The notes below the pieces were generated by a model, which was given only the letters and a program-made list of their open reading frames with translations, did not search any database and was not told the origin of the DNA. Of a stretch of DNA of 35,205 bases, positions 4,710 to 8,160 are shown in pieces (positions within the stretch are counted from its first letter, which is position 1; the number at the start of each line of letters is the position of its first letter). Source of the DNA: a virus; the UHGV virus genome UHGV-0178511; one strand, 5' to 3'. The position numbers were made by a program, and so were the translations under genes.

Positions 4710-5126
4710 TTATACCTCTGAATCAATATCAACCTGGTGGTGAGCAATGGTTTCAACCATGTACCGGATGTGTTCTGCCATGCGCTCCTGAAACTCAACA
4801 TCGTCATCAAACGCACGGGTAATGGCTTTTTTGCTGGCCCCGTGGCGTTGTAAATGATCGATGCAGAGTGATTCAAACAGGTGCTGGGGCAGACCTTTTT
4901 CCATGTCGTCTGCCAGTTCTGCCTCTTTCTCTTCACGGGCGATCTGCTGGTAGTGACGCGTCCAGCTCTGAGCCTCAAGACGATCCTGAATGTAATAAGC
5001 GTTCATGGCTGAACTCCTGAAATAGCTGTGAAAATATCGCCCGCGAAATGCCGGGCTGATTAGGAAAACAGGAAAGGGGGTTAGTGAATGCTTTTGCTTG
5101 ATCTCAGTTTCAGTATTAATATCCAT
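4710..5126 (-). CDS. gam: Lambda Gam, RecBCD inhibitor
   Basis: 138 aa, [55 protein letters not shown]... Confidence 0.95.
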
Positions 5127-5224
5127 TTTTTATAAGCGTCGACGGCCTCACGAAACATCTTTTCATCGCCAATAAAAGTGGCGATAGTGAATTTAGTCTG
5201 GATAGCCATAAGTGTTTGATCCAT
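5081..5224 (-). CDS. kil: Kil (host cell division inhibitor)
   Basis: 47-aa product [47 protein letters not shown] from the internal Met of ORF 5081..5350; overlaps gam as in lambda. Confidence 0.8.
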
Positions 5225-5357
5225 TTTTTGGGACTCCTGGCTGATTAAGTATGTCGATAAGGCGTTTCCATCCGTCACGTAATTTACGGGTGATTCGTTC
5301 AAGTAAAGATTCGGAAGGGCAGCCAGCAACAGGCCACCCTGCAATGGCATATTGCAT
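5193..5357 (-). CDS. cIII: CIII (FtsH inhibitor, stabilises CII)
   Basis: 54-aa ORF below the track's 60-aa cutoff: [54 protein letters not shown]; ATG at 5357-5355, stop at 5195-5193, overlapping kil. Confidence 0.8.
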   Translation of the reverse strand: MQYAIAGWPVAGCPSESLLERITRKLRDGWKRLIDILNQPGVPKNGSNTYGYPD

Positions 5358-5429
5358 GGTGTGCTCCTTATTTATACATAACGAAAAACGCCTCGAGTGA
5401 AGCGTTATTGGTATGCGGTAACGCCGCGC

Positions 5430-5798
5430 TCAGGCGGCTTTGATAGTCATATCATCTGAATCAAATATTCCTGATGTATCGATATCGGTAATTCTTATTC
5501 CTTCGCTACCATCCATTGGAGGCCATCCTTCCTGACCATTTCCATCATTCCAGTCGAACTCACACACAACACCATATGCATTTAAGTCGCTTGAAATTGC
5601 TATAAGCAGAGCATGTTGCGCCAGCATGATTAATACAGCATTTAATACAGAGCCGTGTTTATTGAGTCGGTATTCAGAGTCTGACCAGAAATTATTAATC
5701 TGGTGAAGTTTTTCCTCTGTCATTACGTCATGGTCGATTTCAATTTCTATTGATGCTTTCCAGTCGTAATCAATGATGTATTTTTTGATGTTTGACAT
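5430..5798 (-). CDS. ea10: Ea10-like early protein
   Basis: 122-aa ORF immediately promoter-distal to cIII, same position and length as lambda ea10. Confidence 0.65.
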   Translation of the reverse strand: MSNIKKYIIDYDWKASIEIEIDHDVMTEEKLHQINNFWSDSEYRLNKHGSVLNAVLIMLAQHALLIAISSDLNAYGVVCEFDWNDGNGQEGWPPMDGSEGIRITDIDTSGIFDSDDMTIKAA

Positions 5799-5816
5799 CT
5801 ATTCATATCCTCACAG

Positions 5817-5844
5817 ATAAAAAATCGCCCTCACATTGGAGGGC
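5817..5844 (-). terminator. Intrinsic terminator in the pL operon (tL-like), upstream of ea10
   Basis: On minus strand, stem gccctc/gagggc with 6-nt loop followed by a T-run. Confidence 0.45.
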
Positions 5845-6058
5845 AAAGAAGATTTCCAATAATCAGAACAAGTCGGCTCCTGTTTAGTTACGAGCGACAT
5901 TGCTCAGTGTATTCACTCGTTGGAATGAATACACAGTGCAGTGTTTATTAGTATGCCTGTCTTTTAACCACATCAGGCTCGGTGGTTCTCGTGTACCCCT
6001 ACAGCGAGAAATCGGATAAACTCTATTCACCCCTACAGAGAGCAAAAGAGAAACGCCG

Positions 6059-6640
6059 ATGAACAACTCATGGTGGCAGGAACTAATGCATTTTTTCCTG
6101 CAAGGAATGACACTTAAACAGTTGATTCATATGCTAATCATCCTGATCATATTGATTATTATTATGCCTGTAAGCGTAAAAGAATGGATAAACCTGCATA
6201 ATCCAGAAATCCTTCCTCATTACTGGATGTATTACATCCTGTTGTTTTGCGTTAGCTATGTGCTTAACGGCGTTGTTAATTCCGCTTATCACGCTGTGAC
6301 TGAAAGAATTGAGATATTCGCTGCTCAGAAGCGCAAATCTAAAGAAGAGAAATACGTGCAAGATTTGTTTGATTCGTTAACTCTTGGAGAAAGAGCGTAT
6401 TTGGCATTCGCTGTAGCCGCTAATAACCAGCTAAAGACAGAAAAGGGAAGCCCTGAAGCAATCTCATTGCTCGAAAAAGGGCTTCTTATTCGGGTACCTT
6501 CTGCTACTGGATATCCTGAAATCGACCGTTTTGTTATCCCGGAACGCTATAGAAATGAGTGCTACATTAGGTTTGCTGGGAAGAAAGACAGTCTTATGGA
6601 TGAACTTATCGCTCAGGATAAGCATGGCAAAAACAAGTAA
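6059..6640 (+). CDS. sieB: Superinfection exclusion protein B
   Basis: 193 aa with strongly hydrophobic segment LIHMLIILIILIIIMPVSV; recalled as lambda/P22 SieB. Convergent with N. Confidence 0.85.
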   Translation: MNNSWWQELMHFFLQGMTLKQLIHMLIILIILIIIMPVSVKEWINLHNPEILPHYWMYYILLFCVSYVLNGVVNSAYHAVTERIEIFAAQKRKSKEEKYVQDLFDSLTLGERAYLAFAVAANNQLKTEKGSPEAISLLEKGLLIRVPSATGYPEIDRFVIPERYRNECYIRFAGKKDSLMDELIAQDKHGKNK

Positions 6641-6656
6641 TTAGCAAATTAATTTA

Positions 6657-6929
6657 TCATCTCGCCGTCAGTTGTTTTGATTTCCGGTAGCCTGCCGCGT
6701 AAATGGCTACGTTTGGCAGGCAAATACTTCCACTGCATTCATCTGCCTTCTTGCAGCGAAGGCTTCCGAGTGATGCTGCTTTGTCTGCTCTGACGCAACC
6801 AGAGAGCTTTAGCGCAATTTTTCGCGCCAGTGCTTCATTACTGCGTCGCTCGGCAATAAGTTCTGCTCTGCGAGCTTTGTAGCGGCTTTTTGCCGTACCT
6901 TTGGATTCTTTCCAGACAATGGTTACCAT
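6657..6929 (-). CDS. N: N-family transcription antiterminator with phage-21-type arginine-rich motif
   Basis: GTAKSRYKARRAELIAERR matches the phage 21 N boxB-binding peptide as I recall it; C-terminus resembles P22 gene 24. Start at the Met before VTIVWKE (ORF extends to 6959). Confidence 0.8.
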   Translation of the reverse strand: MVTIVWKESKGTAKSRYKARRAELIAERRSNEALARKIALKLSGCVRADKAASLGSLRCKKADECSGSICLPNVAIYAAGYRKSKQLTAR

Positions 6930-7039
6930 GATGGTCTCCTTTAAGTGGCTTTGGCGCATGACGCGTCGAGGTGCTTATCTTCTCGATCGCTGTCTTGCAG
7001 CTGCAATTCGCGCCATCCCCAAAACCACTCAAGTTCTGG

Positions 7040-7080
7040 TCTCAACGGTTAGGTTGAGAGTCCGTCGATGTTAAAGAGCC
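7040..7080 (-). promoter_or_regulatory. nutL (boxA plus phage-21-type boxB hairpin)
   Basis: Minus strand reads GGCTCTTTAACA (boxA-like) then tctcaac-ctaacc-gttgaga hairpin (boxB). Confidence 0.6.
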
Positions 7081-7125
7081 TGCCAATCTGTTCCGTTTGG
7101 CTTCCAGCGTCCTGCTGATGGCTTA

Positions 7126-7154
7126 AATTTAAGACTTCTTAATTTATTGGTCAA
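7126..7154 (-). promoter_or_regulatory. pL promoter with overlapping P22-type operator
   Basis: Minus strand TTGACC, 17-nt spacer, TAAATT; operator-like palindrome ATTTAAGActtCTTAATT overlaps. Confidence 0.5.
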
Positions 7155-7220
7155 GTGCATTTTTGAAGAAAACTTAATTTTATGGGCGTGAATTTAGTTT
7201 GTCTTTGATTTTTAACGGGA

Positions 7221-7243
7221 AATAAAAAAGGGGCGAAAGCCCC
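7221..7243 (-). terminator. Intrinsic terminator immediately downstream of c2
   Basis: ggggc-gaaa-gcccc hairpin followed by a T-run on the minus strand, directly after the c2 stop. Confidence 0.5.
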
Positions 7244-7894
7244 TTAAGGAAGGTTTGCTAGCTTGGCATCAACGACAACGCCAATGATTTTACAGTTCCC
7301 ATTGATTTCAATCATTGGGTATTGTGGATTGAGTGGTTTCAGGAATTTTCTACCGGCATCAATAACTAACTTTTTGAATGTCGCCTCGTTTTCCCCTTCA
7401 AGTTTGGCGACTACCAGCTTTCCATTACGTGGTTCGACTTCTGGGTCGACGAGAATAATCATCCCCTCAGGAATACTCAGTCCTGCCGGGGCAGTCATTG
7501 AATCGCCTTTAACGTCGAGCCAAAAAGAGTCTTCAGAACAATCTACCGTTGTGTCGTACCAGTTATCTATTGCACGCCTATGATATGGCTCTACAGCTTC
7601 CATCCAACATCCTGCGCTTACCCAACTAATTAGAGGATACGAACCTCTTGGATCATGCCTGCTGTGATAGGCAATGTTTGAAAGACTATCCTCTCCTTTC
7701 AACAGGTAATCAGGGGAGCACTGCAAAGCCTTGGCTAAGGCCAATAGGTTTTCGCCATTGGGCTCAGTTTCAGATCGCTCCCATTGGGAAATAGCAACAT
7801 TAGACACGCCAACCATCTTGCCAAGGGCAGCCTGCCTAATCTTGAGTTCTTTTCTGCGAGCGCGAATACGCTCACCCATCAGTTGTGTATTCAT
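7244..7894 (-). CDS. c2: P22 C2-type prophage repressor (HTH plus S24 autocleavage domain)
   Basis: 216 aa, MNTQLMGERIRARRKELKIRQAALGKMVGVSNVAISQWERSETEPNGENL...; recalled as near-identical to P22 C2. Confidence 0.95.
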   Translation of the reverse strand: MNTQLMGERIRARRKELKIRQAALGKMVGVSNVAISQWERSETEPNGENLLALAKALQCSPDYLLKGEDSLSNIAYHSRHDPRGSYPLISWVSAGCWMEAVEPYHRRAIDNWYDTTVDCSEDSFWLDVKGDSMTAPAGLSIPEGMIILVDPEVEPRNGKLVVAKLEGENEATFKKLVIDAGRKFLKPLNPQYPMIEINGNCKIIGVVVDAKLANLP

Positions 7895-7974
7895 AGTTAA
7901 GACATCTTAAATAAACTTGACTTAAGATTCCTTTGGTGGATAATTTAAGTGTTCTTTAATTTCGGAGCGAGTCT
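7895..7974. promoter_or_regulatory. OR operators with divergent pR/pRM
   Basis: P22-type operator palindromes (AGTTAAGacatCTTAAAT; ATTTAAGtgttCTTTAAT); pR -35 TTGACT and -10 GATAAT with 16-nt spacing. Confidence 0.6.
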
Positions 7975-8160
7975 ATGTACAAAAAAGATGTTATTGACCA
8001 CTTCGGAACCCAGCGTGCTGTTGCTAAAGCACTAGGCATTAGCGATGCAGCAGTCTCTCAGTGGAAAGAAGTTATCCCAGAGAAAGACGCCTATCGATTG
8101 GAAATCGTTACAGCTGGCGCCCTGAAGTATCAAGAAAGTGCTTACCGCCAAGCGGCATAA
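7975..8160 (+). CDS. cro: Cro repressor (P22 type)
   Basis: 61 aa, MYKKDVIDHFGTQRAVAKALGISDAAVSQWKEVIPEKDAYRLEIV... Confidence 0.9.
   Translation: MYKKDVIDHFGTQRAVAKALGISDAAVSQWKEVIPEKDAYRLEIVTAGALKYQESAYRQAA

Follow-up and report, generated by a model that had tools for sequence, protein, structure and literature searches.

A co-varying repeat at the sieB promoter of viral genome UHGV-0178511 and a possible antisense docking hairpin in the pL transcript

Genes of the sieB locus

Analysis of the window (the whole stretch of 35,205 nucleotides from UHGV virus genome UHGV-0178511) showed that sieB is located on the plus strand at 6059-6640 and codes for a protein of 193 amino acids that is 84% identical to SieB of P22. 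The protein passed the Pfam profile PF14163 (score 89.7 bits, cut-off 26, E=1.8e-25, residues 24-164) and matched phrog_1301 (E=8.7e-124). The N antiterminator gene was found on the minus strand at 6657-6929, with a match to the Pfam family N_peptide (E=4.8e-17), and is annotated as N in VT1-Sakai. The convergent arrangement of a plus-strand sieB with N, given in the original prediction, was confirmed, while the distance of 17 bp that it placed between the end of sieB and the N stop codon (6657-6659, minus strand) was not, as 16 nt lie between the two genes. The N protein was 38% identical overall to gp24 of P22 and nearly the same in the last ~20 residues (LP.VA.YAAG.RKSKQ.TAR), a pattern of residues that suggests a mosaic protein with a shared C-terminal module.

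A pL-like promoter was obtained from a consensus scan of the minus strand (7126-7154, TTGACC-17-TAAATT) and is the same as the 'putative major leftward promoter' of VT1-Sakai. It would be the source of a minus-strand transcript that passes through N, runs antisense to sieB and continues into the module upstream of sieB. The layout was that of an early-left operon, with sieB antisense within the operon and early-left genes upstream on the minus strand. Over 5800-6660, lambda-like phages and the Stx1 prophage VT1-Sakai, in which the genes are annotated as sieB and N, were 99.7-99.8% identical to the window.

An in-frame internal start for esc (6131-6640, plus strand) was recognised at Met25 of sieB, the codon at which esc of P22 starts. 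Both the methionine and its context HMLIIL were kept at 6131 and matched the annotated P22 esc start, so the earlier suggestion that an internal methionine may serve as a P22-type Esc start holds as far as homology can tell. Judged by its sequence, the locus is the P22/lambda sieB-esc-sas control system, which is already known, and as an annotation the original prediction is an ordinary and correct sighting of the known sieB promoter and sas region. In that system SieB acts in superinfection exclusion by aborting infection by incoming phages, and Esc and sas provide the escape from it.

Upstream of sieB, a block of ~85 bp, from TGCCTG through the second copy of the repeat ACCCCTACAG, was common to the window, lambda and P22-like phages. 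In both lambda and P22, ral (and orf28) separates ea10 from this conserved block; ral was absent at 5850-5954 of the window, and the ea10-side sequence joined the block directly at ~5953/5954 (GTTTATTAGTA followed by TGCCTG), a junction that was common in HK629, VT1-Sakai and many viral contigs. Just past the module, when read in the pL direction, lay a long imperfect inverted repeat at 5897-5944, with 22-nt arms, 82% complementary, and a 4-nt loop. Conservation over the initial ~100 nt of this region was 97-99% in many Stx phages, HK97-like phages and other lambdoids, with no feature annotated there; the inverted repeat may serve in RNA processing or form a further structured RNA. On the pL strand, a hairpin with a U-tract resembling an intrinsic terminator (5825-5846, minus strand) stood just upstream of ea10/ssb and, by its position, looks like one of the lambda tL2 terminators. 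The sole Rfam match nearby was a full-length match to the lambda cIII thermoregulator at 5312-5370 on the minus strand (88.5 bits, E=1.4e-21).

Promoter and repeat copies upstream of sieB

The P22 record BK000583 annotates a sieB promoter, a 'sieB RNA start site', sieB and esc (codon 25). The P22 promoter feature aligned without gaps to 5991-6022 of the window and by homology placed the -10 hexamer, TAAACT, at 6017-6022 on the plus strand. After a 1-nt deletion in the leader of the window had been allowed for, the P22 RNA start corresponded to A6029, which would be the base at which the sieB transcript begins. The consensus promoter scan missed this promoter, the -35 of which is a poor match to TTGACA.

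Pattern search and a repeat finder showed that ACCCCTACAG followed by C or A and then GAG occurs twice upstream of sieB. Copy 1, ACCCCTACAGCGAG, was located at 5995-6008 on the plus strand, corresponding to -34 to -21 of the sieB promoter, and copy 2, ACCCCTACAGAGAG, at 6029-6042 on the plus strand, corresponding to nucleotides 1-14 of the 30-nt leader, with the putative start as its first base. The two copies were 34 bp apart from start to start and, when extended to 17 nt, identical at 15 of 17 bases. The repeat reported in the original prediction was therefore recovered, with its coordinates moved by 2-3 nt and the spacing of about 30 bp replaced by 34. Its view of the repeats as part of the sieB promoter or a regulatory site also agrees with these positions, as copy 1 overlaps the -35 and spacer and copy 2 begins at +1. 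What it did not contain is that the repeats appear to be mainly an RNA-level feature of the opposite (pL) strand, and that they belong to a conserved cassette found in many lambdoid phages ahead of differing genes.

There were no further matches in the 35-kb window on either strand when up to 2 mismatches were allowed. Shuffles of the window gave a mean of 0.21 matches, and two matches were reached in 4 of 100; chance is thus excluded weakly from the window alone. The comparison with lambda and P22 upstream regions, which had been proposed as a check, showed that the 10-nt core was invariant at both positions while the flanks were variable (lambda, P22, Klebsiella, HK629 and 606R2 relatives), and that the homology to lambda stops exactly after the second core. 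The question of chance is settled by comparison, because the core is invariant amid variable flanks and because the copies co-vary across types, as given below.

In relatives, the -10 was TAAAAT, TATAAT or TAATAT, conserved or improved, in the same place and always 6 nt ahead of copy 2, the register of which was the same in all variants. All modules with the right half had a common layout, namely a stem beginning with TTCT, a C-run, a stem ending with AGAA, 5-6 nt, the -10, 6 nt and copy 2.

Hairpin and pseudoknot on the pL strand

Copy 1 was held within an inverted repeat at 5986-6010, which on the minus strand gives the hairpin H1 (UUCUCG-C-UGUA-GGGG-UACA-CGAGAA) with a GGGG tetraloop. The loop and the upper 5' arm of H1 are the complement of copy 1. 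Across the relatives, 91.7% of the cells of H1 were paired (slid controls at most 66%), and 5 of the 10 pairs were changed on both sides. Cells changed on both sides numbered 18 against 6.1 in shuffles, a value reached in 0 of 500, although these shuffles ignore phylogeny.

The sense of the hairpin was visible in the divergent types, in which the minus-strand RNA formed a stem of 10-11 bp with G.U pairs and the plus strand did not fold (-6.6 to -12.8 kcal/mol in the minus sense against -0.4 to -8.2 in the plus sense). Minus-sense and plus-sense values were -9.1 and -0.4 kcal/mol for locus L031, -9.1 and -1.3 for L016, -9.3 and -2.4 for L262, and -6.6 and -1.3 for L063. Extra minus-sense G.U pairs were present in the Yersinia and L359 variants, and a few variants (L017, L270) had the opposite folding sense. 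A hairpin on the plus strand was ruled out, as the divergent types have no fold in that sense. Copy 1 is probably the DNA image of the minus-strand RNA hairpin H1.

Beyond H1 in the pL direction, the left element of the module (5955-5985, minus strand) was predicted to form an H-type pseudoknot in the pL-strand RNA. Stem A pairs CCAC (complement of 5982-5985) with GUGG (complement of 5968-5971), and stem B pairs GCCUG (complement of 5974-5978) with CAGGC (complement of 5955-5959). Both stems were kept in 14 representative variants with compensatory changes; they were tabulated by script, as MAFFT misaligned the 3' strand. The versions of stem A were CCAC/GUGG, CCACG/CGUGG, CCUC/GAGG and CCGC/GUGG, the last with a minus-sense G.U, and those of stem B were GCCUG/CAGGC, GCCGGG/CCCGGC and GCCUA/UAGGC. 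In the minus sense, loop 1 had 0-3 nt and loop 3 had 5-9 nt and was A-rich, and such loop lengths are the usual geometry of H-type pseudoknots. Within this element, TTAACCACA at 5964-5972 was an 8/9 match to the DnaA-box consensus TTATCCACA, and a Klebsiella relative has TTATCCAC; the likeness may be due to chance, since the same bases build stem A.

Neither H1 nor the pseudoknot matched any Rfam 15 family at E<=1 in a scan of 5000-8000. Neither has the form of an intrinsic terminator, as the sequences after them (CCACCGAGCC for H1, AUACUAAUAA for the pseudoknot) contain no U-tract, and neither was reported by the terminator scan.

Covariation of the two copies

A scan of viral contigs anchored on the left part of the block, and not on the repeats, gave 128 modules with 63 distinct sequences, and further scans added more; about 60 distinct relatives stand behind the comparative results. 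A scan of genome contigs with a 14-base anchor gave chance matches only (loci L130-L249), and a search for related loci with a SieB alignment gave only relatives of >91% identity.

Seven co-varying types of the two copies were found, each with its sequence present in both copies. The type ACCCCTACAG accounted for the majority of modules. The other types were ACCCCTACAA (L260), CCCCAACA (L016, as TCCCCAACA), CCCCAACGCAA (L031, L125, L252 and L254), CCCCAACATAA (L063 and others), TCCCCAGCAA (L262) grouped with CCCCAACAACA (E. coli C5 and L363), and ACCACAACG from a Providencia phage, in which the otherwise invariant CCCC is CCAC in both copies.

Among 28 distinct modules, 327 cells were identical between the copies against 286±4.7 in shuffles (0/2000), and 24 cells shared a non-consensus base against 7.6±2.2 (0/2000), with shuffles that ignore relatedness; slid registers gave at most 181 identical cells. 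The copies have probably co-changed independently ~6-8 times, by estimate. The match was not absolute, with mismatches in L017, L029, L045, L064 and L269. Internal changes between copy 1 and copy 2 were wobble-compatible in ~3 cases and incompatible in ~3, with no preference for wobble in their direction.

These results bear on whether the repeat has a function at all. Were it a chance match or a relic duplication, kept by conservation of the surrounding promoter, the shuffled windows that held two matches and the near identity of most database copies would be expected. Such an origin is nevertheless very improbable in view of the invariant core with variable flanks, the concerted change in divergent phages (Escherichia, Providencia and uncultured viral contigs) and the far lower values in the slid-register and shuffle controls. 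The concerted change of the copies across phages suggests that they recognise each other as RNA.

Covariation of direct repeats can also arise from co-evolving binding sites, and one sequence-specific protein might bind both DNA copies, acting at -34 as an activator of a promoter with a poor -35 and at +1 in repression or as a roadblock, with the types tracking its specificity. The copies stand at classic regulatory positions relative to the mapped start, and the mismatch of the -35 to TTGACA and the failure of the consensus scan to report the promoter are in its favour. However, no candidate protein was linked to the types, the spacing of 34 bp places the copies on different faces of the helix, and the minus-strand-only G.U pairs in the stem-loop of copy 1 would be left unexplained. 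The commonest type occurred with unrelated N and immunity types and type 4 with two N types, and a factor linked to N, CI or Cro is unlikely because the repeat types do not follow the N and immunity types. We consider binding of a protein to both copies quite unlikely as the explanation.

Antisense RNA sas

A homologue of P22 sas was located on the minus strand at 5954-6063, where 107 of the first 111 nt of the published P22A-sas were identical (PMC13397905). That report (2026) obtained the P22 sas sequence from small-RNA sequencing, with both repeats present in antisense form (PMC13397905). The homologue spans the sieB start codon, the Shine-Dalgarno region and the leader, followed by H1 and the pseudoknot, and the reported end of P22 sas lies 16 nt past the alignable block. 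The homologue would stop 68 nt short of the Esc ATG and leave the Esc start uncovered. According to the original work and reviews, sas reportedly blocks synthesis of SieB, and not of Esc, during the lytic growth of P22.

No convincing promoter was seen by eye upstream of the reported 5' end of sas (a U). Because no promoter was seen there, sas was treated as processed from the pL transcript, which is our inference from the sequence. A minus-strand match of the promoter scan inside sieB (6174-6146) was rejected as a sas promoter, being at chance level, and its RNA would cover the Esc start. Folding of the whole sas was not unusual (z -0.69), nor was that of H1 with the pseudoknot (z -1.05). Because these z-scores are unremarkable, support for the structures is drawn from covariation and not from energy.

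Distribution and cargo of the cassette

The same cassette was found ahead of SieB (several subtypes) and of at least five unrelated families, and it was present in 991 of 5426 complete E. coli genomes (about 18%). The cargo families included phrog_1244, phrog_25023, phrog_3983, phrog_5286 and others, of which phrog_1244 (as in HK629 and HK620) codes for a coiled coil with a CxxC...CxxC zinc ribbon. Loci with families other than SieB in the sieB slot were L009, L008, L025, L254, L260, L016 and L063. PADLOC gave no credible match for any cargo. From the slot and the prophage-type promoter, the genes of the slot are candidate prophage exclusion or defence genes.

In every divergent locus that was inspected, the cargo was the only plus-strand gene, flanked by minus-strand genes and followed by a convergent N-like gene and a repressor. 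From this arrangement, the minus strand carries the early-left transcript in these loci as well.

Two kinds of reduced module were observed. In L021, L036, L092 and relatives, a minus-strand gene of 120-148 amino acids stood between N and the module in place of the plus-strand cargo; the -10 was retained along with H1 and the pseudoknot, and copy 2 was cut to ACCCCC, as an arm of a CCCCC/GGGGG hairpin. In L012, L015, L091, L118, L124 and relatives, the module kept only the pseudoknot element. In modules of the L015 type, the hairpin, promoter and repeats had given way to another sequence that contains an inverted repeat, AAAGTAATAGTGGGTAC / GTACCTTTAGTTACTTT, before a small gene (MPDEHPALEMN...), and this slot looks like one with a different control logic.

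Since H1 and the pseudoknot are kept in loci without a plus-strand cargo (L021 type), and the pseudoknot alone in the L015 type, a role independent of the cargo must also be allowed for. This raises the alternative that H1 and the pseudoknot serve the pL transcript structurally, by stabilising its 3' end, by marking a site of processing or by contributing to the first leftward terminator after N, and that the likeness of copy 2 results from recombination that joined the cargo, with no recognition between sense and antisense. The homology of lambda-type, P22-type and other cargo stops exactly past the 10-nt core, like a recombination junction, and the published sas has H1 and the pseudoknot in its 3' part (PMC13397905). 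A passive junction does not, however, predict the joint change of the copies in seven types, including CCCC to CCAC, or the placement of copy 2 always exactly at +1, and with no U-tract past H1 or the pseudoknot there is no intrinsic terminator. As the full explanation, a purely structural element is unlikely. In part, H1 and the pseudoknot are likely to act in the pL transcript whatever the cargo (in its stability, processing or termination); such a role can be compatible with antisense docking at H1 and can be true for the pseudoknot.

Proposed role of H1 in antisense pairing

The explanation that we favour, with slightly better than even confidence in it as a whole, is the known sieB module with H1 as a docking site for the antisense RNA. 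The promoter, the transcript start, Esc and the identity of sas would follow from homology to mapped P22 features, and docking is the step that we infer. In the prophage, sieB would be transcribed from its own promoter from A6029, with copy 2 as the first 14 nt of the mRNA, and translation would give SieB when begun at 6059 and its in-frame inhibitor, Esc, when begun at Met25 (6131). The pL strand read through N would give sas (~6063 to 5954), which would cover the ribosome-binding site of SieB and not the Esc start; as in P22, sas would then turn translation from SieB to Esc in lytic growth. H1 would duplicate the anti-leader in a structured and exposed form. The 5' end of the mRNA, which is C-rich and accessible, could dock on the G-loop of H1 and then invade the stem; pairing with the antisense RNA, in which the true cis-complementary G-run is buried in secondary structure, would thereby be initiated or accelerated. 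The copy may plausibly be displaced because the -10 region, on which the true complement of the 5' end borders, could not encode a stem as well.

The loop and 5' arm of H1, CUGUAGGGGU, are complementary to nucleotides 1-10 of the sieB mRNA, ACCCCUACAG, because copy 1 equals copy 2, and this complementarity was kept across the seven co-varying types. The G-run of the H1 loop was predicted to be open in 49/49 variants with a mean opening cost of 0.33 kcal/mol, whereas the G-run at the true antisense site was predicted to be sequestered (mean 5.8 kcal/mol, 49 variants), mostly by the pyrimidine-rich complement of the Shine-Dalgarno sequence. Opening of mRNA nucleotides 1-10 cost 1.6 against 2.7 in shuffled controls, and 0.54 against 2.78 for the type of the window. 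Cofolding of mRNA nucleotides 1-40 with an RNA made up of H1 and the pseudoknot alone reproduced the proposed pairing with a ddG of -12.4 kcal/mol. The full cis-duplex has 35 bp and a ddG of -54 and, kinetics allowing, would form without H1. Also counting against docking, the loop offers a small target (4 nt, on a stem of 10 bp), and invasion of the stem is costly. The loci with mismatches between the copies, the absence of a preference for wobble-compatible changes and the persistence of H1 and the pseudoknot in loci without a plus-strand cargo weigh in the same direction.

The cassette (pseudoknot, H1, -10 and the 10-nt leader start) would be portable, and would drive and counter-regulate different prophage-expressed genes that lie antisense in the pL operon. 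In a more general and more tentative form, to which we give rather less than an even chance, lambdoid phages including lambda would carry an undescribed RNA cassette in the pL transcript, made up of a G-rich tetraloop hairpin and an H-type pseudoknot beyond a slot for oppositely oriented prophage genes. The hairpin would be a displaced, exposed complement of the first ~10 nt of the slot mRNA and a fast docking site for silencing SieB or other cargo, and the seven or more types would be specificity groups. If this were true, the specificity groups would decide which superinfecting phages switch off the gene of a resident prophage.

The comparative result accounts for the two short repeats that flank the sieB -10, and it predicts an RNA hairpin and a pseudoknot, both outside Rfam, in an operon that ranks among the best studied. 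It also points to a general and portable means by which temperate phages may express their own genes of the abortive-infection type and then disarm them at lytic growth. In the literature searched, which stands apart from the original 1993 sas papers (Ranade & Poteete, J Bacteriol 175:4712 and Genes Dev 7:1498) that may already treat, or speak against, the structure and origin of sas given here, no description of the co-varying relation between hairpin and leader, of the hairpin or of the pseudoknot was found. What the hairpin, the pseudoknot and the co-varying repeat add to a known system is modest and testable.

Comparison with known systems

The closest likeness was to P22, which shares the promoter block, the -10 and the start base, the Met25 start, SieB (84% identical), sas (107/111) and the genome position in the early-left operon, convergent with an N-type gene. 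The window differs from P22 in being of the E. coli lambda/Stx1 prophage type, with an N that is only 38% identical to gp24, a leader 1 nt shorter and no ral upstream. Lambda has sieB in the same place, between N and ral, with the Pfam SieB family in common and a module that is identical from the pseudoknot up to and including nucleotide 10 of the transcript. The homology ends right after ACCCCTACAG, with a different leader and N-terminus, and identity between the proteins is only 22%.

Two antisense systems outside this locus are also comparable. In P1 and P7, the c4 antisense RNA and its targets share a strand within a single transcript, through which synthesis of the antirepressor is controlled. 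The short complementary segments of c4 vary between phages with matched changes and give specificity types, as the two copies do here, but the strand arrangement is different and there is no sequence relation to the sieB cassette. In IS10/Tn10, the 5' end of RNA-IN nucleates on the loop of the antisense RNA-OUT, from where pairing proceeds along the 5' side of the stem. The predicted loop and 5' arm of H1 are likewise complementary to the extreme 5' end of the mRNA. The stem-loop of RNA-OUT is a true cis-complement, whereas H1 is a duplicate displaced by 34 nt, is encoded by promoter DNA that is left untranscribed, and has a loop of only 4 nt, so the relation of H1 to IS10 is one of analogy and not of membership.
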